A stretch of DNA of 64,000 bases from Selaginella moellendorffii (lineage: Eukaryota > Plantae > Lycopodiophyta): contig NW_003314273.1 of NCBI RefSeq assembly GCF_000143415.4, forward strand, positions 1,188,074-1,252,073. The letters run 5' to 3'. The notes beneath the pieces are model-generated. The model was given only the letters and a program-made list of their open reading frames with translations. It ran no database searches and was not told the DNA's origin. Position numbers and translations under genes: made by a program. Each line of letters starts with the position of its first letter. Position 1 is the stretch's first letter. Below are positions 5,330 through 64,000 of this stretch, piece after piece.

Positions 5330-5662
5330 CCATGTAGAAATCCTCCACTATACCTTGTGTGTTCGCAAGGTTCTCCTCTAGTTCCTATGTTGCTTTGCAG
5401 TGTGGAAATCCTTTCCACTTCACATGGACTCTCTCACCTCGTGTCCTTGTCGTTTGCTCTTGCGTGCATTGAGGATGGCCTCGACTTCATATTCCTCTTC
5501 CCCTTGGATAACCTTAGGTAAAGGTCTCACTTGGTCCTTGCAAAGCAGATCCTCAAAGTATAGCTTGAGTAGGTTTACAAGGAACACTGTGTGCATTGTC
5601 CCCATCTCTCAAGCAAGTTGGAGGTGGTAAGCCACTTTACCGATTCATGCCTCAATCTCATA
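5330..5662 (-). pseudogene. Integrase C-terminus/chromodomain remnant of family A
   Basis: HTVFLVNLLKLY...EEEYEVEAILNARK, then VKWKGF in a shifted frame. The upstream integrase sequence continues at 20227. Confidence 0.8.
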
Positions 5663-5686
5663 AAGCTCTATTTTGTTAAAGTGGGA
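5663..5686 (+). repeat. Left terminal inverted repeat
   Basis: AAGCTCTATTTTGTTAAAGTGGGA matches the reverse complement of 20203-20226 at 23/24 positions. Confidence 0.92.
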
Positions 5687-6323
5687 TTTATTCAGTAAAA
5701 TGGGACTAGGTACAAATTTTCAAGTATTTGAAAATGACGTGAAATTATATGTTTTTTGTCTAGGGGCTAGACATATCTAGGGCATGGTGACTAGCGCGGT
5801 GACTTTGTGTCCAGACTGAGTCCATCTGGTTGTATAATAAATCTCATTGTCAAGGTGAACAAGCCGAATCTAAAGCTAAAGAAGAGCGATGGCATGCGCG
5901 CACACACTATTTGTTTGTTCATTGAGCGTATGGTGAGCTTTCCAAGATGAACGTCATTCCTATTAGCCAGACATATAACTTAATGGTGAGAACATTTAGA
6001 TATTATTCAATGTTATCTTTTTCTAACGAATCTAATTGTGAAGGTGTAGCAAGAGGCATTGCTAGTCTGGAGAAGTCATTTAACTCATTTGACCCTTAGT
6101 GTATTTTCATGAAACTAAATAACATTCATATTATTAAGGAATTTCTCTAGTACCTTTTTTTTACGACATAGAGTCTTGCATTTCTTTCAAAGGTGATTTA
6201 GTAAAAGGCCTGAGGGCACATGCCATTCTATTTCTCAGACCGGTATTAAGATATACTAGTGCAAAGGGGAAAAAGGTATTTGGTGATCAAGTAAATGGCA
6301 TGAGGGCACACGCCATTATAAGC

Positions 6324-6580
6324 CTAAGCGCTAGTGGACACCTCCTTTTTGGTACTCTCAGCGGTACTATCATCCTTCTCTGGGTCAGTTGTTTTGCTTT
6401 GGATTGTTGTCTCTGACGTTACTGGGGCGTTCTCGATAGTTGTTAATGTTGCCGTTTGTTCAGAAAAATGATCACCTGGAGTATAGTACGGGGAGTTTGG
6501 AAGACTTATATATTCTACATCTTCACCTATCTCCTTCTCCGTCTCCTTTTCTGCCTCACTTACAGATTTTGTGCTTGCCA
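6324..6580 (-). CDS. Possible acidic/Thr-rich 3' exon or small ORF of the transposon
   Basis: Open frame MASTKSVSEAEKETEKEIGEDVE..., co-oriented with and downstream of the transposase. No recognisable domain. Confidence 0.3.
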
Positions 6581-7308
6581 TGAGAACGCTCTTCACCCTA
6601 AAATATGGAGTTCGTTGTGTTATAAAAGGAAACCAACACACACGCTGCAAGGGAATGATGGTACATAAAGCACGTAAGCCCACAATATGGGTTTATGTGC
6701 CATTAATATGGGCCACACGCCATATTATTAGATTTATGCACGTGTGATTGGTAAATGCATATGTCACATCATCTTTGTTTTACCTCACACACTATATCAG
6801 GCCTAATGAACCATATCACATGTGCGCACATGCTATATATATGGAGAAGTATTATGCAAGGATAGAAAAATTCAATGCATGATTGTGGAGAGCAATGGCA
6901 TGAAGCCACATGCTAAATAACATTTTAGAGAAAGAATTAAAATAGAAACATACAAACAGTACTGAGTGGACCAAGACTTAGAAGTGCACAATTGAATGAG
7001 GTATTTCTAATAAATATTTCACTCACCTCATATAGGAATGGCTACCACTCTCAAATGGCGTATCGCCTCATGCCATCACCTCGCAATTTGTTATAACAAT
7101 CCGATGAATTCATATTCGGCTTGTTCACCTTGAACTTTAAGTAAGATTTGCTAGAACAACTAAGAATTTATACTTGTTATTTGTATCATCTCACCTAGGA
7201 ATGGCATAAGGCCACATGCCATCACGCCTCCTCTAATTCAGATTCGGATTGTTCACCTTGAAATAAAATACATTAGAAACTTAGTAAAGGAATATTAATG
7301 AATCTCAC

Positions 7309-10075
7309 CTTGAACCCGGGTTATGAATGCCCTTGCTGCATCTCTTGCATGGTCTGGCAAGGTGATGGTGGCACTCTACTTCCGCATCCAACCATGCACA
7401 ACATTATCCACCGATATGCTCATGCTGGGATCCCTTGGATTCAGCACCCATCTCTTTTCTAGGCAATCCTTCGTATATCCGGAACTTGGCTTGAACCACT
7501 CCACAGTTACATTGAAGGAGTTAGTTTCCGCATCCTCCTCTGCATCAGTGATGCAGCGCCCCACCCATATCATTTGTTTTTTATTACTGGGTCTGACAAG
7601 CACGACCATTCCTTTGCAGACCTGTACTGGATTGAATGCTGAATCCGGCTTCTTGTTCCTCGGCCCACAATAGTGATCCTCAACATCGTTATCTGTCACT
7701 GCATTTCCAGAGGACATTGTTCCGCTACTATCTGGTGCTCTGGGTTCTGGCCAAAAGGACTCTTCCAATTCTTCATATACAACCGGCCCATTTTGGATAG
7801 CAGATATAATCTTCTCCCAGTATTCGAGCAAAGGCTTGCATCTCTGAAAATAGGATTCTCCACCAAACACCAACCCCCTCTTCCAGAAGGCAATATGCTG
7901 TCTAATCCTGGCCACTATACTTTCCTGGTCTTTGAGTCCATCCGGGTGCATCGGCCGTGGGGAACCCTGAGGAATCATAGGTTCCCCAGTTATGGGATCT
8001 CTCTTGAAAAGTTCAATGCCGTCCACTGGCAGCCACACTGTGTCCCATTCTCTCATCTTGTACCTCATCACTGGAGCACCGTCACACATGCTGAAATGAA
8101 ACTGAAGAGGCTTGGAGTGGCCAATCAACATTTCAGATCCGTCCCTGATGTAGCCTCTTACAAACCCCTTAAAGTCTGGAACCTCTGTCACAAGTGCAGC
8201 TTCAACAGTGCCTTTGATGCAATTTTGGAATTCATCGTAGAATTGTGGGAGGGTGAGGACATTAGATCGCCAGAGGGACTCTGCCAGGTGACTGAACATG
8301 GCATCGATGTCTTCATGAGTGTGCCCAACCATGAGAAAGCCAAGTGTAACCGTTTCAAATATGCCTTTGGCAACAAGCATCGCCAAGTACGCGAAGCCGT
8401 ACATGTTTTTGTTCTCACTGCCAGCATTGTCTGTTTGGAGCAGAAGATGGGGTGGAAGGCCACATCGGCCGCAAGAACTTCCTTGAGATTCTGCTTCGTT
8501 TGGATGAGGCTGTGCATTCACCGGGCGACCAGCCTCGTCGGAATGCCATGAGGCCTCACGTGATAACCCTACAATCTGACGGCCAACATATTCACTGGGA
8601 TGGCATGNNNNNNNNNNNNNNNNNNNNNNNNNNNNNNNNNNNNNNNNNNNNNNNNNNNNNNNNNNNNNNNNNNNNNNNNNNNNNNNNNNNNNNNNNNNNN
8701 NNNNNNNAATCATCATATTTGCACCCCCGCCACCCCATAGAGGTACAAAGAAGTCCCATAGTTCTGGGCACCATGCCCATGAGCGATTATGCCAAATAGA
8801 GACACAGGCAGCTGCATGGATGAAGAGATTGCCTTGGGGGCAGGATTGAGTCGAGGTAAGCACGTCTTTTTCTGGTCCATTTTGTCGTGGATGATGCAGA
8901 GGTAAGAGTCAAGTCTCTCTATGGAGAGAATCCTGTTATGATAATATGCAGTCCTGCAGCTTCTCTGCTCGATGTTGTGGTCGAGCTACCTTCTAACCAA
9001 CGTCTCTCGCTCTTGAGCGATGCAAGAATTCTTCGACAAAGCCATTTTGATAGCAATGCACTCGTCACACTTTGAAAAGCTGGAGTACTTTCCTATACTC
9101 ACATCCCTGAACCTGTTTCTCCACAATCTACTAAATCTAGATTGGCTCAGCTTCCTGTAGCCATTACTCTGGAGTTCCCGATTCACATCTTCCAATATGG
9201 CCAACTTGGTATACATGGAAGGGAGAACTCGTTGGGTGTCTCGAGTTCCATCTTCCAAGAGGCGGGTTTTATGTGGTTGCTGCTCGGTACATGTCTCGAC
9301 AAACCTCTTGAAGATTGCCTCTCCATATACAACATGACCCCTGGTTTTGTGAGTACCGTCGTTCCCATGGACTGCCTGTTGAACCCTTTGTTCCTCGAAC
9401 TCAGTTTTGATTATGTAGAATGTGGTTCGAGGGACTCCATAAATGATTCTCCATGCCTTCATGCAGACCAAACCCCTCTGGAAGACCATGCCCCCCACCT
9501 GATGTTCTGAAGCATCAACAAATGACCGTAATGCCTCATACACAAAATTGCGAGCTGCCTTCTAGGACAATGTCTTGTATCTTGCTCTCTCCTCTTCAAT
9601 AGCATCCCAATCAGCATGTTGACAGCACCTCCTCTTGCAACAAGCAACTGTCGAGACCATTCGAACCTCCATCGCCATTTTCTGCCTTTTCGGTTCGTTG
9701 CTCAGATCCCTTTGGCTGCGCTTTAGGAAGGTGTACTTTCTTTTCCCATGAAGAGATGTTATGTCATCAGTTGTAGTGGTGTTTGATTGTGAATCCTTCA
9801 CATTCTCAAACACTAAGTGCCTCAATTTCCACCGCACAATGCTTCCAATAGTCAGACTGTTTTCTTCTGTGTCAACAACCTCTAAAATCACAACTCCAAT
9901 ATCATCCCAGCCCAATTCTTGATTAGCAACCGCATCTCTTGGATCGACAACTATGGCTAAGCCCTCAGCTACCACCTCCCCCTCGGGGTTGTTTAGAAAC
10001 ACCTTTTCCTGAATCCATGTAGCACGGTTCTTAAGATCCACAGAGGGAACATGCATCGCACTTGCGGAGGCTATT
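7309..10075 (-). pseudogene. DDE/D transposase, Sola-like/DUF7869-type, disrupted by 3 in-frame TAGs, a frameshift near 8754 and an N gap
   Basis: Motifs in order: CCKRRCC, VCMKAWRIIYGV, FSKCDECIAIK, YLCIIHDKMDQKKTCLP, LLLQTDNAGSENKN, FLMVGHTHEDIDAMFS. Splice acceptor at 10076-10077 and donor at 7308. Family recognised from memory of the motifs. Confidence 0.85.
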
Positions 10076-10227
10076 CTGAAAGTGCAGAAAAGAAGTTAAG
10101 ACCATACAAAAAATGATTGGAGAATGGCCTAAATCATAACATACCAAACAACCTCAATAGCATGAGGCCACATGCCATTATTCAAACATGCTATTGACAC
10201 CCATGTGAAATTTCGCATTCACAAAAT

Positions 10228-10552
10228 TGGCATGAGCCCTCATGCCATTAGTGGTACCACTAATGGCATGAGGCCTCACGCTATCTTTGGCCCCTGCTAG
10301 CCTGTTGCTATATTCCNNNNNNNNNNNNNNNNNNNNNNNNNNNNNNNNNNNNNNNNNNNNNNNNNNNNNNNNNNNNNNNNNNNNNNNNNNNNNNNNNNNN
10401 NNNNNNNNNNNNNNNNNNNNNNNNNNNNNNNNNNNNNNNNNNNNNNNNNNNNNNNNNNNNNNNNNNNNNNNNNNNNNNNNNNNNNNNNNATATAGGCAAA
10501 GGATATGGCAATAGGCTAGCAGGGGCCAAAGATGGCATGAGGCCTCATGCTC
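10228..10552. repeat. Nested inverted repeats/hairpin around an N gap
   Basis: 10228-10283 is a near-perfect palindrome centred on GTGGTACCAC. 10264-10316 is the inverted copy of 10501-10552. Confidence 0.85.
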
Positions 10553-10890
10553 ATCTTGATAAACACACAGCTACAGGCAGGTAAAGAAACTATTGGCAAT
10601 ATGCTAGTGATGAACTTGCAAGCCCCAAGATGGCATGAGCCCTCATACCATTAGTGGTACCGTAGCGCCACTCGCACCACCGCAACTGCTCGTAGCGCCG
10701 CTCGCACAAACTGCCACTCGCATAAACTGCCGCTCGCAATGGCGCTCGCAATGCCGCAACCGCTCGTAGACGCATAAACCACAGCTCACAATGCCGCTTA
10801 CACAAGCAGCGCTCACTGCGCTCAGCGGAACCAAGAACACGGCGCACAAAAATGGTAGACCTAGGAATGAGTTCGAGAATTCAAAAATAA

Positions 10891-12822
10891 CACACGCTTG
10901 AACGTCACATCAAATCCTCTGACAAACCAGATCTTATGATTCGTCTGACAAATTTTAAACTGAGTAGCTTCTAGACTTTGCTGTCGGACGTTGAACTTTG
11001 TCACATCATGTCCTTGCCTCGATCCAGCTGTGCCATGTCAGTGATTCGAACTTTGCCATGCCATGTCAGCGATCCGCGCCAAGATTATTCGCCGTGTAAA
11101 GGAATAATTATGCTGTGTGTGTACGTCCATTTATGGCAATATAAGGCCACACGCCATTCAAAGAATAATGCTAGTCGAGCATTTTTTGGTGCATTTTTGG
11201 GTTCAAAATTGCATGAGCCCACACGCTATAAAGTTTACCTGTACCAAAAATAGAAACAGCTTTATTTACTTGGGAATTTAAGTGGTTGAGGCATTTTTAA
11301 ACTTACAAACACATGCCCTACTTACATTCCTTTGGTTGCTTAAAATTCAAAAATATTATAAACTTTTCTTTTTGCATTTTCAATGTTTTCAATTATGGTT
11401 TTTGATTTTCGCAGGACCAGCCTAGTAATCTATTTGCATCCCGTCATGTTTATAGCTAGCTTTCGTTTGTCCCCTTCGCTAGCCTGAGATACATCTGCTC
11501 GGCATCTGCCTCTTACAGCATTTGCCCAGAAAGGGCATCTTTCTTCACGCAGCATTTGCCACATGTTTAGGGTTTAGGGTTTAGCAATTCAGTAGCTTGA
11601 TAAACATGCAAATACAGAACTTGATGCAAAATCCTTTGATATGTCACAATGCCCCTAGGACCATAAACACATTTCAATAGAGAGGGTCCTTTCATTTCAT
11701 AACTCCTTACGTAGATCTTGGTGAAACCAGAGTTAGTGAAGTTAGTTTCTTGTGATCCCGCATCTGATTGTGATGTCCCTTTGCAGTGTCGATGGAAAGG
11801 TCAATGCACACCAAACTGTAAAATCTTGGAGCAAAATAACGGTCGGATCTATGGCAAATGCCCTTGAAACATTGTAAGGCTCGTGTGGTCTCATGTGGTG
11901 TCCAATCGAGATGCTTCTTTGCAGGGTCATCAAGAAAGACATTGTATACCATTCTGTAAAATCTAGTTGCGATCTAACGGCTGGATCTCCAGAAAACTCA
12001 AAAAAATCTCGCGCGTGTCAGAATATTCTAGGAATATACTCCTATGTGCCCCTTAAAATGGCATGCGGCCCCACGCCATTCAAGAGATAACGCCAGATGA
12101 CACCGAGCATTTTTTGGTGCATTTTTTGGGATCAAAATTGCATGAGCTCACACGCTTGAACGTCACATCAAATCCTCTAACAAACCAGATCTTATAATTC
12201 CTCTGACAAATTTCAAACTGAGTAGCTTCTAGACTTTGCTGTCGGACGTTGAACTTTGTCACATCATGTCCTTGCCTCGATCCAGCTGTGCCATGTCAGT
12301 GATTCGAACTTTGCCATGCCATGTCAGCGATCCGCGCCAAGATTATTCGCCGTGTAACTGCTCGGCATCTGCCTCTTACAGCATTTGCCCAGAAAGGGCA
12401 TCTTTCTTCACGCAGCATTTGCCACATATTTAGGGAGGGTTTAGGGTTTAGCAATTCAGTAGCTTGATAAACATGCAAATACAGAACTTGATGCAAAATC
12501 CTTTGATATGTCACAATGCCCCTAGGACTATAAACACATTTCAATAGAGAGGGTCCTTTCATTTCATAACTCCTTACGTAGATCTTGGTGAAACCAGAGT
12601 TAGTGAAGTTGGTTTCTTGTGATCCCACATCTGATTGTGATGTCCCTTTGCAGTGTCGATGGAAAGGTCAATGCACACCAAACTGTAAAATCTTGGAGCA
12701 AAATAACGGTCGGATCTATGGCAAATGCCCCTGAAACATTGTAAGGCTCGTGTGGTCTCATGTGGTATCCGATCGAGATGCTTCTTTGCAGGGTCATCAA
12801 GAAGGACATTGTATACCATTCT
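10891..12822 (+). repeat. Internal direct duplications in the intergenic region of the transposon
   Basis: 10891-11099 matches 12149-12357, and 11495-11955 matches 12358-12822, both near-identical. Confidence 0.9.
11566..11584 (+). promoter_or_regulatory. Short plant telomere-type repeat (telo-box-like)
   Basis: TTTAGGGTTTAGGGTTTAG; duplicated at ~12429-12451. Confidence 0.55.
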
Positions 12823-13483
12823 TTATTTAGCTGAACATCTGGCATTTTTGGAAATACAAGATGCTTTGGAATATCCAATCATGCATGGTATAAATATAGC
12901 GAGGGTATTAAATGATATCCCAATCATGATCTTTCTTTTGGATTTCGCGTGCATGCAGTCTGAGGAATGATGACGTTGCGGATTTTTTTTGGATTTCACG
13001 TGCATGCATGCGCGTGGCGATCCAGAAATTAATGGTGGCGCCCAAGTCCGAGGAATGATGACGTTGCGGGATTACCAACCGTCGTGACATTTCGCGCGTG
13101 TGAGGTTAGGTTTTGCATTTTGCTTCGTACTCGCGCTCGCATCGCGCTCCCACTCGCGATCACGCTCACATTCGCGCTCATCTACCTTCTCTACAGGTTT
13201 CTCGTGTGCATCGGCATCCACTCGCGCTTACATCACACTCGCGCTCGCATCGCACTCGTGTGCATCGGCGTCCACTTCAAGACACACCCAGTTTGTAACT
13301 TCGCCGCCAACTCTGCCGCCCACTCCGCCACCCACACGCAGCCCACTTGGCGTCCCGGGAGATTTCAGCACCACTCTCCAACTGTAAGTGGCAGAGTAGC
13401 CTTGTTGCTACGATCCACTGCACAAACAGTGCACATTCGCCAGCGAGTCCGGCCTCGATTGTCACGCCTCCATTCGGCTTCAA

Positions 13484-16400
13484 ATGGTAAGTCTTTTAGG
13501 CCAAGTAGAAAATGGCATGAGGCCACATGCCATTCAGTAGCAACATTGGCATACACCGATTGGGCTCTCGAGTGCAGTCCGGTTACAGATGGCGTGTAGC
13601 CTCACGCCATCTTAGGATGCAGCCTCAAGACATCTGATGTAGTGGTGAATAGCGTGTGGCCTCACGTTATTTCCAGCTGCTAGCTTTTCATCTGTCAGCT
13701 CTAATTGTTGTGCATTTCTGAACAGGCGAGGAATTGCGTTCTTCTTCCAGCCACTGTCAATGTGGATGCAGAGAAGGGGGAGGAGCTCACCAGTTGGACT
13801 TTCGGGATGGAAGGCGAGGATCTGAGGCTGTACAACACAGATGGTGGGAGAAAAGAATGCATGGGGATCCTCATCCAAGTGACAGACACTCCATGCAGTT
13901 CCATGCAAGAATATGGACTGGCACTTGTGGTAGAAACAGCGTCTGCCTTCAAGATCCACCTTGCACATCCTAGCGGCTTCCCGGAGGGGGGCAGCGGCTA
14001 TGAGGAATTCCTAGAGGGAGCTAGGGAGAGGTTGTCCAGGAGGCCCACAATTTCAAAGATGCTGCGGTACTATGAAGATCACATGGAATCCACGGACCTC
14101 ACCTACGGCGATGTTCAAAAACTATATTCCAACATTGAGCTGTTGAGAGTGACTCCAGTTCGCGAAGCAAAGGGGAAGGGGGTCGATCTGGAAACTACCC
14201 CGAAGCAGAAAAGGGTGGTCAAGCTCAAGCCGACGTCCGACTCTCCTGCTCCAAAAAAGAAGCTACTCGGTGATGCCATTGCCTCGGGTTCGAACACTAC
14301 ACCCACCAAAAGGAAGAGCCGCAAAGAGCAGAAAGAGCAAGAAGAGGCAGCAAAAATCGTCGCAGATAATAGTACTTGTTACTATTCCAACAAAGTATAT
14401 ACAATCGACGTGAGCCACATCGACATCCAAAGCAAATACAACCACAGGCTAGTATCTGATGAGTGGGTGGAGAAACTGAAGCAGAAGATGCTGGCAAGTC
14501 CAGTAACACCTGACATCGCAGACGTGATCCCCTACTACCGAACAATAAAGGGCGAGATGAGGTTTCCAGACTTGATCAATAGGAAGGTGTTGGACGATCA
14601 GAACATCCGGTTCTATGCCGTCTCCGGGCAGCATTCTAGCTTGGCGATACAAGAGATAGTTGTGGATATTATGGTGGGCGAGGAGGTGAAGAAAGTCTTC
14701 AAGACAAGAGTTGTCTACCTGATAAAAGGCAACTCGCCCCTCCGATCTATCATATACATCTCCCACGCGCAGAATGTCAAGCAAGAAATGTGCTACAAAT
14801 CGGGTCTGCACGAGACATTGGCACGAACATGGAAGCTCTGGGTTCAACTAAAGAAGCCACAAAAACCAGGACAAGGACGTGCACTAGCAACTAGCGCCTG
14901 GCAGGTAAGCCTCGTTGCATGTGGCATAGCATGTGGCCTCACGCTATTTCCATTGTAGGAATTCTCGAGTCTTCTCTCGAAAACACTAGGGGTCAATGAC
15001 ACACTCAGCATCCATAACATTCTACTCGTGATAAAAGTTGTTTTTGACAAATGGGTAGATGTGTTGAGGAGGTACCATGACGGGGAGTTGCTAAACTCAA
15101 TGGGTGTGGAGGACGGCCGGAAGCCCAATGATTTGAAGCTCAATGCCTTGCGTTTCTCACGGTCTTTAGATGAGGACGACCTTCTGACAGTGGCTAATGC
15201 TCTTCTACGTGGTGAGGTAGTCTTCAACAAGACCAAAATGACTCCCGGCCATATTGTGACATACGAGGACTTGTGCACGACTCTGAGAGCTCGTGCGCTA
15301 TTGAAGGATTGGATCTTCGAGCAAGTGGCCATGGAGAGGGTGAGCATTGACATCACGCAAGAGATGATGGAAGAGCTGGAGTTGTCAAATGAAGACATCG
15401 ACGAGTACGTGAAGGGGGCCCCCAAGTTCATTAATCTGCTGCGGGATGCCACGAAAAGTAAAGCTGAGAAGTTGGATCAGTATCCAAATTTCATTAAGAG
15501 GGATGTCGACCGCCGGCTTCAGAAACAGCTCGACCCCGCAGCAGAGGCCTATCGAGAACCTTACCGGGTATACGTGAATTCGGATGAGGATCATAGGTGG
15601 AGGAGCATCGTTTCCCGCGGAGATGAGCAGGTCAAGAACATCTTTTGTGTGATGGACTTCACAAACGAGGAGATCACTCATGCAGACGAAGTCAGCTCCA
15701 TCATTGATTTAATGGTGGGACTTGCGGAGGTGGAATCTTCAGTCCATTATATGATCTACGACTCCGAATCCTATCACAAGTTCTAGAAGGCCTTGAACGA
15801 GGTGAAGGCTCGGTTGAAAGGCAAGGAGATGCGGGAGATCCATGGGATAATGGCTAAGAAGAAGATACCGACGAATGTCCGCATCTTCACACTCGCCCTT
15901 GTTATTGGTCCTGCAACAGAGTGGGACTGGAGTGACTTCCCAGCTTCGTTCGACAAGGCCGATCGAATTGATCTGAGGGAGGTCAATTTACCCGTGCCTG
16001 AGGAACTGAAGACGGCTATGGAGCTTTCGAATCCAGAGAAAGCTCCAGGTGCAGCATGGGAAATGCTCAACTGGGTCTTCAACGCAATAGCGGGTGGGTC
16101 ACCTGCTTCCGACTCCAAGGGCAAATGCGTTGTCGAGTACAATTGCGGCGGACTATTCTTTCGAGCCACACTACTCAAGGGTGTCCTGTGTGTTGTGGTG
16201 ACAAACTCCATTGAAGAGGTGACTTCAATGGAGCATATAATTACAGTTGCCAAAGAAAAACAGTATCTTCTCTGCGAACCTGGTGAGTACGCACTTTAAG
16301 TTTAAATGTTATCTCACAAGCTCTGTATGCAGGAGCGTGGCCACCCCCAGATGCTGAAACGGCGTTAATAGCTACTGTTGAAGATACCCATGTTGGGCCG

Positions 16401-19400
16401 AGCTCACAACCTGCACAAGGTAAGGTCACGTGAGGCCTCATGCCATTTTGATTATAGATCGTTGTGAATATTCAGACACGAGGACTGAAAAGCGCACTAG
16501 TGGCGCGTCGAAGAAGGACAAACAGACAAGCAATAGGAAAAAAGGAGGTACAAATTATATTTGCAATGGCGTGTGGTCTTATGCCATTCCTTGCAGGAGA
16601 CACTTCTTCAAAGGCAAAACAGGCAAGCACAAGCCAAGTACAACGGACGAGAGGTACCAATCATTTTTGTTATACGTGAATTCTCATGCCATTGCTTCTT
16701 GCAGCTCAAATTCCAAAGAGATTAGGGCAAGCAGCGCAGACCTCACGACAAGAACCTGAAGGTTTGATGGCGTGTGGCCCCACGCAATTAACTAATGTTC
16801 TTGCAAATCGTGTCGAGGAAATCGAACGGAACAACGTGCCTCTAGTGGAGGAGGGGGAGGCCTCGGAGAGTGATAAGGAGAGTTCCGAAACAGGTACGAT
16901 CATGACATATGGCCCCATGCACTTATCTAAGTTTGTATTTCAGGGGAACAAGTTGAACCAATGGAAAACTTTATGAAAGGTAACTTAAAAATATTATGGG
17001 ATGTTGCATGTGTTGATGCAATAATATACAGTTCAAGTGCCAAGGAGACGTCGTGAACCTCGAATTAGGCTACCTGCAAAATAGCTTTCAGATGCTGTAG
17101 ACAAAGAGATGGATAACCAACCAGGGCAGAGGAGGAAGGGTAAAAGCATTTGTGTGCTTATTGCGTATGTCCTCATGCTATTTCTATAGAACGGGCGCAT
17201 AAGAAACGAAAGCGAAAGGGAATTGAGGAGCAGGCACCTGAGGATGCGGAAGGCACGACAGAGCCTCCAAGGACGGGAAGTAAAGCGTCATGGTTATTGC
17301 GTGGGTCCTCATGCCATTTCTTGCAGATCAAGCTCAAACTGACAGTGGTCATAAAAAGCGAAAGCACGTTGGACAGTCGTGGGGATCAGAGGCGTTTGAT
17401 TCGAAAAGGAAGAAGGGCAACGAAAAGATGATAGGTAATGCCTCGCGGTTATGGCGTGTGTGCTCATGCCATTCATTGCAGATCAAGGGCTGAGTGAAAG
17501 CAGCCAGTCACCACCTCCTGACTCAGATTCCTATGGCAGACTCCCCTTCCCCAATCTCAATGGAGAGGTACAATGGATGAGGGATGCTTTTCAAGTCAGG
17601 GCCACGTTTTTCTCATCTCATCGTCTTTGAAGGGTGCAAGAATGTGCAGAAACCATGTTAAGACAGTCGGGTGAGGATACGGTCCTAGGTCATGCACTAA
17701 AACAGGCTATGGATGTCTTGTATTTTGAGATGGAGACTCGGCCAGATGATTTTCCCAAGATGGTCCTGGAAGAACAAGCCATCCAGCCTGAGCAGCCTAT
17801 GGAAGAAATGCAGGAGGGGGATGAGGAGCCAGAGAAAGATAATGAGCAGGAAGAGCAGAAGGACGAAGAGGAGGACGAAGAGGACTTGGATGGTCCTCAC
17901 AATGGTGACGATCACAATAACGACGATGACCATGATGACGACAATGGCCAACCTGAGGTGGCCAAAGAGCAGCGGAGGAAGGTCATACAAGACAAACCAT
18001 CAGGTAAATAATAGTACATCCATTCCTAACCTTTTACCATTTCTAACATTGTCCATGTAGGTCGCAGAGCAAATGGTAAGTAGAGATTATTCAGTTGAAT
18101 TAAGATACAAACTCTAGCCTTTAGTGTCGAGGAAGGATAGTGCCAAGCAAGGGTCGAAACGTATGTCCAATCCTTCAGAATCAGCAGTGCGCCTAAGTGA
18201 TATCGGTCCTAGTTCCTCAATAGCAGTTGATGGTAAATACAATATAGTCGATTCAATATGCTAATGAGTTTGTTTTTAGTAGCACGGAAGGATACCATCT
18301 CAATCGAAGGGAGATATTTGGACATGCATATGGAACCGCCAGTGGACTCTACTTGCCTGCAAGAGTCATCAGAGCTGGTGGAGGCTACTATCCATATCAA
18401 CGCCAAGCAAGCTGACCACGCTCCACTTGATGCTGCCCATACCACTGAGTCAATCTTGTCCATGTATCCAACTGACGGTGACCAGGCGCCATTGGACCCG
18501 CATGAGGCCGCCCCAGCCGCCGAGCCGGTCGTATCCTCATTTCCAACGGACTCAACGTGTGCCCAATCGTCTGACTACGCGCCGTTGGAACCTCCCTACA
18601 CCGCCCCTGCTGCCTGTTCGATCATGTCCACTTTGCCAACGGAGGCACTAGCTGAAATGGCGTGTGATCACACGCCATCGGAACCACCCCATGCCACTGT
18701 TGAGCCAGTTGTACCAGAGTCTACAACTGAAATGGCATGTGCCCACACGCCATCGGATGCGATTGACCCCACATTGCAGATGAGAGTATTTCCGCCTTTC
18801 ACGTTTCCTTGACCAAAACCCTCTCAACGACCATCGGGAGCACCATTCGCTAATATTGTAGATGGTAAAATTGACTTGTACCATTTTTTATGCTGACACA
18901 TTTCATTTCAAAGTCACGGCGAAGGTACTGTATCGTTTTTGATCTGAACGGTGTCCTTTTCTCCCATGAGCGTGGCTCGTCCTCGAATGTCACTGCACCC
19001 TCCAAAGCATGCGGTCGCAAGTTGGTCAAAAGAGACAAATTCACATTAATCACACGGGAGAAACTGCAGGATCTAATAATGACCATGCAACACTTAAAAC
19101 AGAGGGCCGGGTTCAATTTGCAATTGGGAGTTTGGACATCCATGATGCGCCACAATGCATTAACGTTGCTACAGATGATGCACGATCAGATGTGAGTAAT
19201 ATTACCATTTGACTTTCTCCTAACGCAGGAGGATTGCTTGACTATGGTCCATGTGAGGGGTAGCAAGCCCATCTTCGTCAAGCCAGAGGCTGTAGTGATG
19301 AACCGGACTGCTAGGTCAAGTGAAATCCTCATCATCGATGACTCGTCGATTAAAACTGCAGCGAACACGCACACATATGCAGTGCACCCCATCTCTTGCA

Positions 19401-19774
19401 GTATGGAAACTAGGGAGAAGAAACCGTATGTTCTGGGGGACCTTGCAAAACGGCTTGGAGCGATGGTGATAGAGAACCGGCCAGTCCAGGAGGTGGCTGC
19501 AGAAATCAACCAAATGGCAAATGGAACGGTATATCAGAAGCCATTTGATCGGACAAACACTAGTCATCATTTATGGCATGTATATTGTCTAGCCAAGCAC
19601 TATCCGCATCTCCATAATCTGCTCAACCGGATGGGTTCTTCGACCACTGAACATGAGCGTGGACATATTAGAGAAGAGATGGCATTACTATTGGGTTTAA
19701 ATCCTAATAGTGTGGAGAGTGATGAAATTCCAAGATTATTGTATAGGTGTTGGAAGCAAAAAATAACAGTCTGA
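13484..19774 (+). pseudogene. Multi-exon transposon cargo gene (~1,750 aa): ParB/Srx-like, degenerate MTase-like, low-complexity linker, FCP1/NIF HAD-phosphatase-like
   Basis: ATG at 13484, then frame-preserving GT-AG introns: 13487-13725, 14905-14958, 16283-16332, 16420-16475, 16548-16596, 16654-16704, 16762-16806, 16894-16943, 16980-17031, 17140-17189, 17280-17326, 17435-17481, 18004-18060, 18076-18124, 18233-18279 and 18865-18911. Five in-frame stops. Two acceptors are mutated here but intact in the copy at 61176-64000. Confidence 0.8.
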
Positions 19775-20202
19775 GATGGCATGTATTTATTTAAAAATGT
19801 AACTTATTATGGCATGGGGTTCCATGCCATTGTATTAATATTAAAAGACAATTCTTTGAGAGGATTTGCATTATACTAGAAGTGTTACAGCATGTTACAA
19901 CATGTTATTGGAAGTCTACGAAGTTGTTTTATTAATAAGGGGAAAGTAAAGATTGAATGGGGACTTGGGCTCCATCTAAACTCGGAGCAACTGAGCCAAT
20001 ATTAAAAGGATGGAAAGAAATTGGACGACGATGACAAGGAGAAGAGAGAGGTGAAGCAGTGGCAGGGGGAGGAGAAGTGATTGAGTAGACATTTCCTTAT
20101 TTAAAATAAAATGGCATGTGCCTCAATGCAGTTGAATTTTGTTATATTTATATACTATATAAAGGTTTGGAAACCTTATTTTACAAGTGGGATAATGACA
20201 AT

Positions 20203-20226
20203 TCCCACTTTAACGAAATAGAGCTT
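20203..20226 (-). repeat. Right terminal inverted repeat
   Basis: TCCCACTTTAACGAAATAGAGCTT, the inverted partner of 5663-5686. Confidence 0.92.
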
Positions 20227-21450
20227 CATAAGGCCCCACGAACCTGCTTAAGGAACTCAAGATCAGTTCATTTCCAGGAATACATGCATTTTTACCTTTG
20301 GGTAAACTTTCGGCTGATCCCACTTGGTAGCCTTAGGTTCTTAGTGTTCAGCCACACCTTCTCCCCAGGTTGGAACTCTACGTCCCGACGCTTCTAGTTT
20401 GCATACTTGGTTTGCCTTTATTGAGCCCGTTCCAAGGAATCCCTCACTAGATTCCAAATGTTGAGCCTTTCCGCCATGAACGCCTTCACTGCAAGTAACT
20501 CTCCATGATACTCGGCCATGCCGAGTTTCACAAGATATTCAATAGCCTGCCCATTGATGACTTCCCATGGATTCACCCTGATACTCGAGTGTGGTGAGTT
20601 ATTATAACACATTTCCACAAATCTCAAATAACTTACCCAATCGGTCTGGTCCTTCAAGACATAGCATCACAAATAATCCTCCAATTGCCTATTCACCCTT
20701 TCTGCTTGTCCATCTATCTGTGGGTGATAGGCTGTACTGAATTTCAACTTAGTGTGATATTGTTCCAAGAGAGTTCTCCAGAACCTACTAGTGAAGATCT
20801 TATCTCGATCTGAGATAATCTCTTCTGGCCTTTCCCGCATTCGAACCACTTATTTGAATAACAACTTCACCACACCTTCGGCATCCACTTCTGTTATGGT
20901 GGGTATGAAATATGCCATCTTCGAAAATCGGTCCACCACCACAAATATTGCATCGAACCCCTCACTTGGGGGGAGTCCCATGATGAAGTCCATCGTAAGA
21001 CATTTTCACGGACGATCTGGAATTGGGATGCTTTTTAACAAGCCCCCACTAGCTTTAGTCACGGCTTTGACCTGTTGATATATTGGACATCCCTTTACAT
21101 AGTCTTGGACGTCCTTAGCCATATCTGGCTAGTGATACTTCCTCTTATGTAAGCCCATCATCTTGGGCACTCCACCGTGTCCCGCAAGAGGTCCATCATA
21201 ACACTCTTCTAAGGCTACCTTCCTTAGTTCCCCTTCTGGAACATACACCCTTGTTTGTTTATAATAGATGAGTCCATTGTGTTCTGCATAGCTTGTTTTC
21301 TCTTCCATTGGCAGCTCACCTCTTTGGTGAGCTTCTCGCGCCTCCAGGTTCATCAGCAACACTGCTTATGCTAGACCATTATTCTCATACACTGTCTGCA
21401 CATCATCCCAAAAGGTTGCTATCGTGCTGGATATCACCAGCTTTAAGCTT
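20227..21450 (-). pseudogene. Gypsy integrase remnant (family A)
   Basis: ECYDGPLAGHGG; IISDRDKIFTSRFW; STAYHPQIDGQAERVNRQLEDYL. Confidence 0.9.
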
Positions 21451-27100: not shown

Positions 27101-28368
27101 AATTTTCGATCTCGATCTCTTGAGCCGTACGCTGTAGTGCCACAGCATCTAGCTCTTCCTCTTCTGACTTAGCCTTAGCCTCTTCCGCAGCATCTCTAGT
27201 AATAGTTTCCTCCTCTCGATTTGCCCATCTAGATGTTTTAGAGTCATCAGTATGGCTAGCTGCATGTATGCCTCTTTCAGTAACTGAATATGCATACAAT
27301 GTTCTTACCGAATGGTGCAATCCATCTAATCCTCCACAAGTCGCTTTGGATCTACTAAAAAAGTCTCTACGTATGCAACTTGAGTCAGAAAATCCAACAA
27401 AAGTTGGATAGGAATTGTTGAGACAATCCCTCTAATACCAAATGTAGCACACCTAAATTTGGAGCTGCACTCCAAGCCAGTTACGCTACAAAACAAGGGT
27501 CCAGTACAATCCCATGACCACCAGCTCCCCGTATCCAGCACTTGCACGCAAAATGGTGTCAGATGGAGTTTGGCGCAATTTTGGCATACCAGTTGCCTAA
27601 CACGAGGAGGAGCATACCCCACCAACTAGAGTAGCATGGAGCTTGGGCTTAAACCCAAGATGGACACAAAACAAAGAGCGACATAGCTCAACGGGAGCCA
27701 AACTAATATCTCAAATGGTCAGACATGCATTCCAACCACTATCCCTACTATACAATTGGAACCCCGTACAGCCCCCTCCCCCCCCCCCAAGGAACACACG
27801 ATTTGGGCTTTGGGCTTTCACTCCAAGCCTCCCTTAGTACTAGGAGTTAGTCTCTAGGACAAGCTCGAAACTTATTAAATATGGAATGTTCCTAGATTGC
27901 AAATTTGGATACGGGATGCACACCATTGTGTTCAAGCCAATCTTTACATTCTGTAGATATGCCAAATGAGCAAATCTAGACACTTTCCATAAATAGCATT
28001 TGGAACTGAAATAAGACCAACACAAAGGGTATGATAGTGAGGGTGTTTGGTAGACACAATAAGCTATCATTCAGCGATATTGAGGGAATAGTCTCAATAC
28101 GTGGGGGTTCTTGATACTAGCAACTGCAAGACAATGACACAAGTTTCTCAAACTAGGCCAAGTATACATAGCAAGAAACATATAGGGTTCCTACCTTATG
28201 TTTATCCAATTTAAGTACAAGGTTATTCACCAATTTCTCAACTAGCTCAAGTGAGAACAATAAAGGGAACCAACTGTATTGACCTTCTACCATCATGGCA
28301 GTAAGGAAAAAGTGTCCGTAAAGATTTGCTGACAATTATTTTTTGATACCTGAAGTCACATTTGCGAC
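24176..28368 (-). mobile_element. Truncated gypsy element (family B): 5' LTR 28368-27443, PBS 27440-27430, gag, protease, RT, RNase H
   Basis: PBS TGGTATTAGAG; gag KPPNFRG...LEDWVYDIENYF; protease MIDTGATHSVI; [10 protein letters not shown]; RNase H HCDAFGYAIGAVLQQ. Confidence 0.88.
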
Positions 28369-31300
28369 AAAAATCAACAATGGAAACCATCTCCATAGTA
28401 AAACAATTATCAACAACAATACTAAAATAATCAGCAATAGAAATTTTCTCAACAATCAAATTACCAACAATAGCCACAATAATATGAATAACAACCTCAA
28501 GCATATCCTTGAAACAACTGTGAGCAACAAACTTAAACTTACAACTTTCAACCTCAATACTAATAATAACAAAATCAAGGGACCAACCATCTTAGAATAA
28601 TTAATCTAATCATAGACCTCCACCAATAGTAAGAAATATCAATATAGAACTAATTGAAGAAGAGCTATATAAAGACAAACCTAAAATCCAAGTTCTCAAA
28701 TGAACTCAAAAGGACATAATTCTTTAAGAAAAAGACCTTGACAACAAAATTAAAAGACAAGAAACTTATGATGAAATACAAGAAATTTCAAGAAAAGAAT
28801 CAAAAGAAGCTAAAAAACTTATCAACATAGTGCAAAAAAACTTTTAACAACAAAAACCTGAAATAAAAGATGATCAAAAAATCACAATCCAACCCATATC
28901 AAAATATGAGAAGCAACTACAACTCATAAACAAAATTCTTTAACAAGGTAACACGCATACCCTTCAAGAGTTTTTGCAGATCACTTCATACTTGAATAAA
29001 CAATTCTTTAAAATTTATCAAGCACTAGCATAAGTATAATCAATTGAAATCAAGAAAAAAACTAGCAATACTTCAATCCACAAAACTAATATCTAACCTA
29101 GTGACTTTGATAAAGATGTGCCATGCATTCCAATCTTAATAGGAAAGAAGAAAATTCCAGAAGCAAATGTCAACATTATTGAATACTTAGCATGCAAAGT
29201 GATGGGACTTGGACCAATTCAGCCAACACCCTTTAACATCCAGATGATTGATGACAAAAATGTAGAACCTTTTGGAATCATCTACAATATCCTAATCAAA
29301 ATCAAAGATCAAAAGTTTAAAGTAGTTTTCATCATATTCAAGATGGCTAAAGAACACTATTTCTATAAAGTGCTCCTTGGACAAACTTGTGGAAGAACAT
29401 AATCACTTTTAGAGAGCATCAAGATTCTCCTTAACTTTCCACAAATACAATAAAGAAAATTTAGAAGAAATTCTAACAAACTATTATTAAACACTACAAT
29501 TGGAATGAAGACCTTAATGACTATAAAAAAACATAAATTTTGAAAGCATATCTAGAATTGAAGTCCTTTATTGAAGTTGATCTCAACCGAATTATCCCCA
29601 AGTTTAACCTAATCTGCTCAACAAAACTACGAGAAACTTCTGACTCAAGAAGATTCAACACTCAAGACTACACCAGCAAAACTCAAGAAACAGCATAACC
29701 AACCAGGATCAAACTTGAGCAACTCTAACAAATTCTTGTTATGATCTAAATCTCTAGTAATATGAAGTTTCTTAAATCATTTTCAATTCCTAAGTTGATT
29801 TTTCAATTGATTCTTCAATATTGAGAATTTGCAAGAGTTGAAATCCTTTTTGTCAAAGAGTTAGTTCTTCTCTATGATTGACTTGTTGTTGAGCAATTGA
29901 TATTTTAGACAAGTACAAAGATGTTTTTGCTTGGCCTTATACAAATTTGAGAGGAATCCCTCCAAAATATGCATGACTAAATCAAACTTTTTTCTCAGAT
30001 TGTATTAAGAAAACAATCAGCATACCAAATGAACCCAATATGCAACTCAAAGTCAAGGAAAAACTTGACAAACTTGAACAAATCAATTTCATCTACCCAA
30101 TCTAGATTCTAGAATGGCTATCACTACTAGTAATTGTTCCTAAGAAGAATAATAAACTCAAGATTAGTGCTCAATGATGCAATATAAAAAGACACATTTG
30201 CAATTCCCTTCTCTGAAAAAATTCTCAACACAAATGCTAGACGCAAAATATACTCATTCCTTAACAGCTTTTCAGGATACAACCAAGTTACACTTGAAGA
30301 TCAGTATAAGACAGCTTTCATAAACCTATGGGGTGGTTATACATACCTACATATACTATTTGGTCTTTCCAATGCACCATTTACTTTCTAAAGAATCATC
30401 ACGAACACTTTTTAAGAGTACTTCACAGAATTCATATGAGTTTTCATGGATGCCTTCAGCATTTTCAATAGCAAAGAACACTATCTCTAATGTCTCAAAA
30501 AATGCTTCATCAGATATTGAGAAAACAACATCTCCTTAAAGTTTGATAAATGCACTTTCTTTATCAAATCCAAAGTTATACTTAGACATGTTATCTGCAA
30601 AGAAGGCATCCTCATTGGTAAAGACAAGACTCTACCATCACCAACATGCAACATCCAACATACATCACCCAATTTCGAACCTTCCTTAACAAAATGGGAT
30701 ACCATTGATGATTTATTAGAAATTAAACAAAGATTATCAAACCATTTATTGAACTTTTCAAGAAGGATTAAGTCTACAAATGGACTCAAGAATGTCAAGA
30801 AGCTTTCAACATACTCAAGAATTTGCTGACAAGAGCTTTAATACTTGCTCAACCAAGTTGGAGAAAAGACTTTAACATTCAAGTCAATACCTTTTCCTAT
30901 GCAATAAGAGTGGTTTTTTCACAGTAGCAAAAAGACCTTAAAAATTGACCAATCTACTATGCCAATTAAAGACTCAATTCAGCTAAGATGAACTATACCA
31001 CTACAAAAAAAGAAGCTCTCAGAATGGTCTATGCACTTTAGAAATTTTAACATTACCTTCTTGGCAATAAAGTGAAGATTATGATAAATATAACGTGCTT
31101 CTACACCTTCTTAACAAAACCACCAATAGTTTTCTCAAGAATATAATATTGAGATCATCCACAAGTCTAGTAAGAAACATGAACAAGCTGACCATTTTAA
31201 TTACATCATAATAAGTGAATAACCAAAGTATAACATAGATGATTTCCTTGACTCCAACATCTTATGAGTCTATACTTTACCCTAAACACATGACATCTGC

Positions 31301-61175: not shown

Positions 61176-64000
61176 TCAAGCAATCCTCCTGCGTTAGGAG
61201 AAAGTCAAATGGTAATATTACTCACGTCTGATCGTGCATCATCTATAGCAATGTTAATGCATTGTGGCGCATCATGGATGTCCAAACTCCCAATTGCAAA
61301 TTGAACCCGGCCCTCTGTTTTAAGTGTCGCATGGTTATTATTAGATCCCGCAGTTTCTCCCGTGTGATTAATGTGAATCTGTCTCTTTTGACCAACTTGC
61401 GACCGCAGGCTTTGGAGGGTGTAGTGACATTTGAGGACAAGCCACGCTCATGGGAGAAAAGGACACCGTTCAGATAAAAAACGATACAGTACCTTCGCCG
61501 TGACTCTGAAATGAAATGCGTCAGCATAAAAAATGGTACAAGTCAATTTTACCATCTACAATATTAGCGAATGGTGCTCCCGATGGTCGTTGAGAGGGTT
61601 TTGGTCGAGGAAACGTGAAGGGCGGAAATACTCTCCTCTGCAATGTGGGGTAAATCGCATCTGATGGTGTGTGGGCACATGCCATTTCAGCTGTAGACTC
61701 TGGTACAACTGGCTCAACAGTGGCATGGGGTGGTTCCGATGGCGTGTGATCACACGCCATTTCAGCTGGTGCCTCCGTTGGCAAAGTGGACATGACCGAA
61801 CAGGCAGCAGGGGCGGTGTAGGGAGGTTCCAACGGCGCGTAGTCAGACGATTGGGCACACGTTGAGTCCGTTGGAAATGAGGATACGACCAGCTCGGCAG
61901 CTGGGGCGGCCTCATGCGGGTCCAATGGCGCCTGGTCACCGTCAGTTGGATACGTGGACAAGATTGACTCAGTGGTATGGGCAGCATCAAGTGGAGTGTG
62001 GTCAGCTTGCTTGGCGTTGATATGGATAGTAGCCTCCACCAGCTCTGATGACTCTTGCAGGCAAGTAGAGTCCACTGGCGGATCCATATGCATGTCCAAA
62101 TATCTCCCTTCGATTGAGATGGTATCCTCCCGTGCTACTAAAAACAAACTCATTAGCACATTGAATCGACTATATTGTATTTACCATCAACTGCTATTGA
62201 GGAACTAGGACCGATATCACTTGGGCACATTGCTGATTCTGAAGGATTGGACATACGCTTCGACCCTTGCTTGGCACTATCCTTCCTCGACACTAAAGGC
62301 TAGAGTTTGTATCTTAATTCAACTGAATAATCTCTACTTACCATTTGCTCTGCAACCTACATGGACAATGTTAGAAATGGTAAAAGGTTAGGAATGGATG
62401 TACTATTATTTACCTGATGGTTTGTCTTGTATGACCTTCCTCCGCTGCTCTTTGGCCACCTCAGGCTGGCCATCGTCGTCATCATCGTCGTCGTCGTTAT
62501 TGTGATCGTCACCATTGTGAGGACCATCCAAGTCCTCTTCGTCCTCCTCTTCTTCGTCCTCCTCTTCTTTGTCCTCCTCTTCGTCCTTCTGCTCTTCCTG
62601 CTCATTATCTTTCTCTGGCTCCTCATCCCCCTCCTGCATTTCTTCCATAGGCTGCTCAGGCTGGATGGCTTGTTCTTCCAGGACCATCTTGGGAAAATCA
62701 TCTGGCCGAGTCTCCATCTCAAAATACAAGACATCCATAGCCTGTTTTAATGCATGACCTAGGACCGTATCCTCACCCGATTGTCTTAACATGGTTTCTG
62801 CATGTTCTTGCACCCTTCAAAGACGATGAGATGAGAAAAACGTGGCCCTGACTTGAAAAGCATCCCTCATCCATTGTACCTCTCTATTGAGATTGGGGAA
62901 GGGGAGTCCGCCATAGGAATCTGAGTCAGGAGGTGGTGACTGGCTACTTTCACTCAGCCCTTGATCTGCAATGAATGGCATGAGCACATACACCATAACC
63001 GCGAGGCATTACCTATAATCTCTTCGTTGCCCTTCTTCCTTTTCGAATCAAACGCCTCTGATCCCGACGACTGTCCAACGTGCTTTCGCTTTTTATGACC
63101 ACTGTCAGTTTGAGCTTGATCTGCAAGAAATGGCATGAGGACCCACGCAATAACCATGACGCTTTACTTCCCGTCCTTGGAGGCTCTGTCGTGCCTTCCG
63201 CATCCTCAGGTGCCTGCTCCTCAATTCCCTTTCGCTTTCGTTTCTTATGTGCCCGTTCTACAGAAATAGCATGAGGACATATGCGATAAGCACACAAATG
63301 CTTTTACCCTTCCTCCTCTGCCCTGGTCGGTTGTCCATCTCTTTGTCTACAGCGTCTGAAAGCTGTTTTGCAGGTAGCCTAATTCGAGGTTCACGATGTC
63401 TCCTTGGCACTTGAACTGTATATTATTGCATCAACACATGCAACATCCCATAATATTTTTAAGTTACCTTTCATAAAGTTTTCCATTGGTTCAACTCGTT
63501 CCCCTGAAATACAAACTTAGATAAGTGCATGGGGCCATATGTCATGATCGTACTTGTTTCGGAACTCTCCTTATCACTCTCCGAGGCCTCCCCCTCCTCC
63601 ATTGGAGGCACGTTGTTCCGTTCGATTTCCTCGACGCGATCTGCAAGAACATTAGTTAATTGCGTGGGGCCACACGCCATCAAACCTTCAGGTTCTTGTC
63701 GTGAGGTCTGTGCTGCTTGCCCTAGTCTCTTTGGAATTTGAGCTGCAAGAAGCAATGGCATGAGAATTCACGTATAACAAAAATGATTGGTACCTCTCGT
63801 CCGTTGTACTTGGCTGGTGCTTGCCTGTTTTGCCTTTGAAGAAGTGTCTCCTGCAAGGAATGGCATGAGACCACATGCCATTGCAAATATAATTTGTACC
63901 TCCTTTTTTCCTATTGCTTGTCTGTTTGTCCTTCTTCGACGTGCCACCAGTGCGCTTTTCAGTCTTCGTGTCTGAATATTCACAACGATCTATAATCAAA
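61176..64000 (-). mobile_element. Second, inverted and truncated copy of the giant DNA transposon (cargo-gene exons)
   Basis: The reverse complement is near-identical to 16447-19241, with the same exons, introns and palindromes. It continues past the window end. Confidence 0.95.

Follow-up and report, generated by a model that had tools for sequence, protein, structure and literature searches.

A 22-bp dyad repeated throughout a DUF7869 DNA transposon as a candidate binding site of the element's own transposase

In Arabidopsis and maize, Mutator-like and Spm elements are known, from the accessible portions of the literature, to encode sequence-specific self-activation. In the Mutator-like VANDAL elements of Arabidopsis, the VANC21 and VANC6 motifs are family-specific and dense in non-coding DNA, including introns. 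They are described in the accessible text as non-palindromic words of 8-9 bp, lying in one orientation inside tandem repeats (PMC5735166, PMC10398659). For AtMu1, it is reported that the transposase alone activates cognate copies; the available part of the same preprint presents Spm TnpA and the AtMu1 transposase as sequence-specific activators with binding and hypomethylation confined to the termini (bioRxiv 10.64898/2026.08.24.746577). For Sola1 elements, a target preference AWWT is given in the part of the report available to us (PMC3845634). We found no literature on DUF7869 or on palindromes of the kind described below in the sources covered, which did not extend to subscription journals and Repbase.

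The window, that is the whole 64-kb stretch of DNA analysed here, carries 31 copies of a palindrome, all within one 14,564-bp transposon, and 8 more in a truncated second copy of it. The initial annotation had proposed about 30 copies of TGGCRTG-N6-CAYGCCA with an exactly 6-bp spacer, spread along the element and not confined to its ends. Both points were confirmed. The exact motif occurs 11 times in the window, nine times in 5890..20131 and twice in the second copy at 61.2-64 kb, and the same arms are never found there at spacers of 0-5 or 7-12. Between 5800 and 20200 there are 18 sites with at most one mismatch, 24 with at most two and 31 with at most three, spread over 5889..20132. At two mismatches no site lies in the window outside both element copies, and the other spacer lengths give 0-7 matches each (the maximum of 7 at spacer 11), which we read as probable shifted registers of the same sites. 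One hundred second-order Markov simulations gave a chance mean of 0.31 and a maximum of 3, compared with the 24 observed. When a scoring matrix was built from these 24 sites, 31 sites in the element scored above 8 bits, and the best score outside the copies was 0.4. The element and its parts are as follows.

5659..5662, forward strand: left target site duplication CATA, 4 bp, from the empty-site comparison
5663..20226, no strand assigned: DNA transposon, 14,564 bp (273 N), decayed, inserted in an LTR-retroelement fragment
5663..5686, forward strand: left terminal inverted repeat (TIR), 24 bp, matching the right one at 23 of 24 positions
7376..10095, reverse strand: DUF7869 DDE-type transposase gene, broken by stops and one frameshift near 8753
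13484..19774, forward strand: predicted gene 2, with 17 exons, 16 introns (15 of 45-57 bp), 1766 aa and 5 premature stops
20203..20226, reverse strand: right TIR; an X2 contig ends at 20226
20227..20230, forward strand: right target site duplication CATA, 4 bp, from the empty-site comparison
61176..64000, reverse strand: second, truncated element copy, 96% identical to 16447-19241, with 8 sites

The empty site was read from a paralogous retroelement near 59.3 kb, and also from X2 contig ends and empty-site X2 contigs. A second insertion with a different flank, found in X2 contigs, diverges from the window at 5659. With its TIRs, a target site duplication backed by the empty site, a transposase gene and multiple copies, the element is a cut-and-paste TIR/DDE DNA transposon. 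The two copies in the window differ at 74 positions, 65 of them transitions, and 49 of these transitions lie in CG or CHG context. Such a spectrum is what would be expected of a methylated element. Differences fall on 7 of 198 motif positions and on 67 of 2597 surrounding positions; the motifs have diverged no less than their surroundings, as expected after insertion, which lends no support to the role proposed below for the sites.

The transposase gene matches Pfam DUF7869 with an E-value of 6.5e-38, and 15 homologs of its product were found at 29-45%, with the N-terminal part aligning to homolog P0011. In an X2 contig this gene is longer by 244 letters, at 10066-10068. From context and motifs we infer that DUF7869 is a transposase; its motifs resemble those that we take to be Sola-type. 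None of the searches made identified a DNA-binding domain in the transposase profile.

The product of gene 2 is unrelated to the transposase. Its introns are predicted, and their splice sites are kept in the second window copy; in RNA runs X8 and X9, of which about 12% was read, coverage is essentially limited to 40 bp at 13381-13420. The protein has a domain with an SGQH motif in exon 2, followed by a disordered acidic linker and a C-terminus with weak NIF/HAD-like resemblance (NIF E 0.023, below the cut-off); Pfam searches with pieces of the protein gave no family above the cut-off. An alignment search with the protein returned P0003 alone. A model made for this protein had a pLDDT of 58.6 and gave no clear match with Foldseek and VIA-align, and a longer single-sequence model (pLDDT 33) was unusable. 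Reading exon 3 as a dead N4/N6 methyltransferase was dropped for want of support in searches, and so was an intron at 19192-19228, where the frame reads through a stop.

The sites are distributed over the element as follows.

5889..7222, no strand assigned: 7 sites 3' of the transposase gene (arm starts 5890, 6206, 6296, 6816, 6896, 7056, 7202)
8543..8564, no strand assigned: 1 site within the transposase reading frame; other copies are nearer the consensus at 8546
10157..12158, no strand assigned: 8 sites between the head-to-head genes (10158, 10228, 10264, 10533, 10631, 11209, 12059, 12138)
13512..17472, no strand assigned: 11 sites in predicted introns of gene 2 (13513, 13590, 13650, 14927, 16426, 16567, 16768, 16903, 17161, 17297, 17452)
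18657..18753, no strand assigned: 2 sites in exon 16 of gene 2, inside a 75-bp peptide duplication
19809..20132, no strand assigned: 2 sites past the gene-2 stop codon (19810, 20112)

Weak additional sites lie at 11137, between the head-to-head genes, and at 16672, in the intron stretch of gene 2. Sites avoid coding DNA: by our own gene model 57% of the element is coding, and three of the 31 sites are there (p 5e-8). A site is carried by 10 of the 16 predicted introns of gene 2. This intron location, like the palindromes of related elements described below, goes beyond the initial annotation.

That annotation had treated the unit as 7-bp arms around a variable spacer. The arms and the spacer length stood, but the spacer is constrained: G stands at its position 2 and C at its position 5 (1.59 bits, with 0.8-1.9 bits in the arms), and positions 3-4 are mostly G/C (0.79 bits), which leaves positions 1 and 6 as the only loose ones (0.3 bits). 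An outer A/T pair is conserved too (1.28 bits), and the full unit is therefore a 22-bp dyad, ATGGCRTG-WGSSCW-CAYGCCAT, made of two 11-bp half-sites. It had also been suggested that conserved flanks would mark the copies as by-products of duplication. It turned out that flanks are 30.5% identical between sites, against 29.1% for random sequence and 75% for the core.

The arms combine as A-T in 11 sites, A-C in 9, G-T in 6, G-C in 4 and C-T in one. Among the 31 sites we found no covariation between arms of the kind a hairpin would show; pairing is without compensatory change, and in 21 sites spacer position 1 is not complementary to position 6. That the two arms vary independently argues against a hairpin, and pairing that is not conserved suits a dimer on duplex DNA. 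With the fixed spacing and the unconserved flanks, the best reading of the sequence is that the palindrome serves a protein dimer on duplex DNA; the operator proposed in the initial annotation is kept in the form of two 11-bp half-sites, and "variable spacer" was an overstatement. The variation it had placed at an arm CpG, CATG versus CGTG/CACG, is present as well: CA/TG stands in 37 of 62 half-sites and CG in 22. Some of these differences look like decay between the window copies. However, other copies, seen as high-depth contigs, also have the CATG arms of 5.9-7.2 kb, which means that the family contains both states. T replacing C at this position mimics 5-methylcytosine, and binding would therefore be likely to tolerate methylation there.

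Five further palindromes, each specific to its family, were found in related DUF7869 elements, where they likewise occupy non-coding DNA and an intron of the transposase gene. L003 has nine copies of TTGGCCATATGGCCAA, L002 four of GCTCAAAC-N4-GTTTGAGC, L017 ten of CACGGGTG-N2-CACCCGTG and L009 six of GTCGGC-N5-GCCGAC. In one clade, TGGTGGCCACCA is present at least twice in 28 of 35 rows, which by our reading of the tree are about 14 distinct insertions. The table of motifs by loci is diagonal, with off-diagonal counts of 0-2. A gap in the transposase gene, identically placed in L009, L036, L041, L047, L053, L057 and L061, holds the family dyad in each of them, and its GT..AG ends could be read in L009 and L057. 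No palindrome was seen in 7 of the 35 clade rows, nor in the close relatives L004-L007 and L012-L016, several of these contigs being short. Thirteen of 80 loci were picked out by a de novo test for palindromes, which missed the clade motif that an inverted-repeat scan found; the flags of L027, L045, L052, L057, L060 and L078 were set aside as tandem or low-complexity. The tree is a quick version of 71 rows, with 10 of the 80 loci omitted for short coverage, and in it the window element groups with L001-L007 at only 90% support. L017 and L026 contain tandem motif arrays. Of the long loci, only L047 yielded a clear TIR pair in a first search, and this locus looks like a deletion derivative. L038/L039 have an additional G-box-like palindrome, present three times.

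We tentatively propose, with a confidence approaching even, that the palindrome is bound by a dimer of the transposase that the element itself encodes; this protein would cover the element from end to end and keep it unsilenced and transcribed. That the binder is encoded by the element is quite probable; given this, the transposase is probably the binder; and self-activation is somewhat favoured as the main role of the sites. In L041, which is bounded by a TIR at 1962 and a worn TIR near 12230 and has 5 sites, neither tblastn nor a profile search nor Pfam detected a second gene, and this makes the transposase the likelier binder.

It is unlikely that the second protein is the binder, its exon-2 domain loading on the palindromes as ParB does on parS and then spreading as a VANC-like accessory factor. 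Among its Atlas neighbours by features are clusters of DUF3723 (0.95) and one of the ParB N-terminal family (0.92, with the family on 35% of members). Its [SD]GQH motif, invariant in the window protein and four homolog clusters, presumably resembles the ParB GxxR box, which is the CTP-binding motif of ParB. However, the residue after GQH, where R is expected, is S or T and never R in all seven aligned rows, and no ParB match was found by Pfam, PHROGs, PDB sequence or phage tblastn searches. None of the 80 related loci matches the second protein; in the closest relatives the sequence ends 1-2 kb upstream of the transposase start, so these may hold a second gene, and the long relatives are decayed, so that a lost one could be missed. 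Site density is highest in the introns of gene 2, which favours this protein, as for VANC21 in the accessible text (PMC5735166). A stronger version is more improbable still: a family-specific dyad code would fill every non-coding gap across the DUF7869 lineage, even tiny introns built to house it, and its reader here would be a giant accessory protein with a ParB-derived clamp, loading at parS-like sites and spreading against silencing. As unlikely as the second protein is a role of the sites in transposition itself, where they would gather transposase and pair the ends of a long element, the inner copies being surplus or an autoregulatory sink. For hAT and CACTA elements, subterminal sites for the transposase are established; here the outermost site and the TIR are about 95 bp apart at the right end in the window and at the 5' end of L047, and less than 100 bp apart at the 3' TIR of L026, L040 and L047. 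End pairing needs no inner sites, yet most of the 31 are several kb away from both ends, with a single site per 45-57-bp intron.

Two further explanations have a very low probability, the latter slightly the lower. The sites could act as RNA or single-strand hairpins, or be a neutral by-product of duplication or of tiny intron-making insertions. Four tested sites fold at -6 to -10.5 kcal/mol; introns 11 and 12 of gene 2 resemble each other at 81%, and flanks are shared in 4 of 465 site pairs, so duplication accounts for some spread of sites. But nine of the 31 sites have an A-C mismatch, a fixed G and C lie inside the would-be loop, flanks are unrelated in 461 of the 465 pairs, 20 sites lie outside the introns of gene 2, and sites stand anywhere from 9 to 193 bases from the 3' splice site. 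The sole Rfam match was mir-7939, whose 28 bits fall below the cut-off of 75. Alternatively, binding sites of a host transcription factor may have been captured. The core at some copies resembles what we take to be GGNCCCAC-type (TCP) plant sites, and the G-box-like palindrome of L038/L039 is in keeping with this, but six unrelated dyads track the transposase families, and the other DNA of the window, about 46 kb, lacks the motif.

If the transposase is the binder, each half-site would be read by one subunit on duplex DNA, and site and protein would diverge together. Sites may have spread through local duplication of exon-intron units and short tandem units, and been retained while their flanks drifted. 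If VANC, TnpA and the AtMu1 transposase are a guide, dense binding could lead to local loss of methylation and thereby activate the element genes. Here another transposase family has the same signature, six dyads matched to six transposase lineages. These motif-protein pairs are material for asking how a transposon protein and its sites diverge together, and bear on the tolerance of 5-methylcytosine and on whether demand for motifs drives the gain of small introns. The analysis also flags an unannotated predicted accessory protein.

Compared with the known systems, as far as the accessible parts of the reports describe them, the element shares with VANDAL/VANC a short family-specific motif, frequent in introns and other non-coding DNA, rare in other families and partly duplicated in tandem, and accessory gene(s) in the element. 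The motif here is a 22-bp dyad, mostly single and with unrelated flanks, in contrast to the unidirectional tandem VANC words, and it belongs to a DUF7869 element with intact TIRs in which Pfam detects neither a Mutator-type transposase nor a VANC homolog. With TnpA and AtMu1 it shares family-specific motif clusters that co-diversify with the element, but the sites are element-wide, including introns and three coding positions, whereas those systems are described as restricted to termini. Unlike CACTA and hAT subterminal repeats, the sites are not confined to the element ends. A 4-bp target duplication and short TIRs are also features of Sola1; the target duplication here is CATA at one fully read site, not AWWT, and the element has 14.6 kb with a second gene. 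ParB-parS partition sites are likewise many palindromic dyads in one region, and the second protein has a weak ParB-like signal; it differs in lacking a significant sequence or fold match, in having S or T at the GxxR arginine, and in belonging to a eukaryotic transposon.

The window holds 11 exact matches to the palindrome TGGCRTG-N6-CAYGCCA; the same exact arms at spacers of 0–5 or 7–12 bp give none. Between 5800 and 20200, 18 sites were found at up to one mismatch, 24 at up to two and 31 at up to three. The window contains no site at up to two mismatches outside the two element copies, and Markov simulations gave a mean of 0.31 sites versus the 24 observed. A matrix built from these 24 sites extends the palindrome to a 22-bp dyad, ATGGCRTG-W-G-S-S-C-W-CAYGCCAT; beyond its edge the information drops quickly, to 0.07 bits at the second base. 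Sites above 8 bits number 31 in the element and 8 in the truncated second copy (61176–64000), and the best score in the rest of the window is 0.4 bits; the scores are circular for the 24 training sites, not for the outside control. The initial annotation had described a spacer of exactly 6 bp and variable sequence. The length is indeed fixed, but the sequence is not free: 1.59 bits are found at each of spacer positions 2 and 5.

A paralogous LTR-retroelement fragment matches the element flanks and is uninterrupted across the insertion point. Therefore, the element can be delimited as follows.

Features of the element
5663 and 20226, element ends, from the paralogous empty LTR-retroelement fragment
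Element ends, TIRs of 24 bp with one mismatch between them, from comparison with the empty site
Flanking the element, target site duplication CATA, from comparison with the empty site
Minus strand, broken transposase gene, DUF7869 by Pfam
Plus strand, head to head with the transposase gene, predicted gene 2 (17 exons, 1766 aa, five premature stops)

Some contigs assembled from sequencing run X2 stop at 20226; the empty site is present in this run too, as is a second insertion with a different flank. The DUF7869 gene has 15 homologs (29–45% identity). In the second copy, GT and AG are found at all 12 gene-2 introns covered, two of which have the acceptor AA in this copy and AG in the second. 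Between the two copies, gene 2 shows one indel alone, of 30 bases and in frame. The RNA read runs X8 and X9 gave no support for the gene-2 model. Transitions between element copies were seen in CG, CHG and CHH contexts, the context calls being rough; taken with the gene structure, they suggest a eukaryotic host, probably a land plant.

Internal duplications of 97–98% (10891–11958 and 12149–12825) lie between the two genes, and an X2 contig links 12257 back to 11000; this repeat may belong to the transposon family or be an assembly loop. Downstream of the transposase, a small minus-strand open frame (6324–6692, about 85 codons from ATG) has an acceptor-like site just before it and no Pfam match; it is possibly a third gene or a spliced exon. 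A stretch of 40 bp shortly upstream of gene 2 (13381–13420) is matched by RNA reads, more than 100 from X8 and more than 100 from X9, and these reads extend into other sequence, presumably large-subunit rRNA. This could be a captured rRNA fragment near the promoter of the element.

The 31 sites avoid coding sequence: gene-2 introns hold 11 of them and the remaining non-coding DNA 17, which leaves 3 in coding DNA, although by the gene model this makes up 57% of the element (p = 5e-8). A site of at least 7.4 bits is present in 10 of the 16 gene-2 introns. Eight of introns 4–12 carry one; these introns are 45–56 bp long, and the exons between them are whole codons. As had been proposed, the copies are not confined to the ends: they are spread over the full length of the element, and the gaps between them reach about 1.6 kb at most and mostly fall at long exons. 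Their flanks, whose equal conservation would have pointed to a by-product of duplication, are not conserved (30.5% identity versus 29.1% at random). Flanks are shared in 4 of 465 site pairs, and introns 11 and 12 are 81% alike. Thus, some sites probably spread by duplication, the dyad outlasting its flanks.

Related transposases were examined at 80 loci from a metagenome scan using a transposase alignment, and five other dyads were found.

Dyads of the relatives
L003, 9 copies
L002, 4 copies, with a related form in L001
L017, 10 copies
L009, 6 copies
Clade of 35 rows (99% support), TGGTGGCCACCA

Of the 35 rows, 28 contain the clade motif two or more times, versus 0–1 expected; many rows are one insertion in different assemblies, and about 14 distinct insertions were counted. 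Among the other 45 loci it occurs only in L057 and L061, both similar to the clade at the DNA level, and the motif-by-locus table is diagonal. Seven loci carry the family dyad in a transposase-gene gap whose position they share; in L009 and L057 this gap reads as a GT-AG intron. L026, L028, L031, L054 and L064 have no dyad copy at this position. No palindrome was found in seven of the clade rows, nor in L004–L007 and L012–L016; several of all these are short contigs. In the closest relatives, L003 (5301), L005 (4254), L007 (2388) and L001 (4766), sequences similar to the TIR of this element lie shortly past the transposase stop. L078 (1–11242) holds two inverted transposase copies in a palindrome of about 10 kb, and in L079 (6596–14545) the open frame with the DUF7869-like match runs to 2650 codons, well beyond the length of the other homologs.

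Less probably, the palindromes could form a hairpin, serve end-pairing or be host-factor sites. Against the hairpin, the two arms vary independently across the 31 sites, and 21 of these have non-complementary bases at spacer positions 1 and 6, a pattern that fits two half-sites on duplex DNA and agrees with the dimeric protein initially suggested. Rfam gave nothing above cut-off. Among 62 half-sites, 37 have CA/TG and 22 CG at the arm position, and several differences between element copies fall on this CpG. CATG arms are kept in high-depth contigs over 5931–7239 (at most one unlisted difference), and at 8546 and 13651 other copies are nearer the consensus.

The transposase is the likelier binder, since it is the sole gene common to all palindrome-bearing loci. 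The second protein is a real rival: the loci were selected by the transposase gene itself, close relatives are truncated on the upstream side and long ones are decayed. None of the 80 loci matches the gene-2 protein. L041, whose two TIRs (one clear, one worn) lie about 10.3 kb apart, has five sites and no Pfam family in its upstream 4.2 kb. A search of 1.84 billion representatives gave four distant homolog clusters of the gene-2 protein (24–31%) with a GQH motif in common. Three of the four SGQH-domain homologs (P0001–P0004) end in WKV where intron 2 begins, which suggests a conserved intron and a wider gene family. The Atlas places the domain near eukaryotic clusters without names and near DUF3723, with a ParB N-terminal cluster following at rank 25; family, structure and fold searches did not confirm the ParB likeness. 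In the C-terminal part of gene 2 (18912–19774) there is a DLNGVL motif, and this part matches NIF phosphatase weakly (E 0.023, below cut-off). No solved structure matched the transposase profile, and its N-terminal repeats match Transposase_23 weakly in 3 of 5 homologs scanned (E 0.02–0.1).

Elsewhere in the window, a long inverted repeat (35380–39134, 71–80%) surrounds an open frame (36565–37059) without a Pfam match, which we take to be Helitron Rep-like. A further element (27746–32660) has inverted ends of about 600 bp (73%) and an AT-rich interior; one arm is repeated at 55513–55880. Host genes occupy 43016–53301, where a 542-aa frame has no Pfam match.

Host genes
47973–48671, WD40 protein
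52252–53301, minus strand, MORN-repeat protein

We propose that a dimer would recognise two 11-bp half-sites and be recruited along the full length of the element; by analogy with VANC21, TnpA and the AtMu1 transposase, its binding might lower methylation and switch on cognate copies. In the openly accessible literature searched, nothing was found on DUF7869 or such palindrome arrays. PMC5751038 contributed no diagnostic feature to the superfamily question. The CATA duplication agrees with Sola in its 4-bp length but not with the AWWT target preference of Sola1, as described in PMC3845634. According to PMC5735166 and PMC10398659, the VANC21 motif is densely distributed over non-coding regions, introns included, and varies between families; bioRxiv 10.64898/2026.08.24.746577 presents TnpA and the AtMu1 transposase as sequence-specific activators. 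The palindrome may work in the same mode as VANC/TnpA targeting, from which the element is set apart by its transposase family, the form of the dyad and the dispersed layout of its sites.
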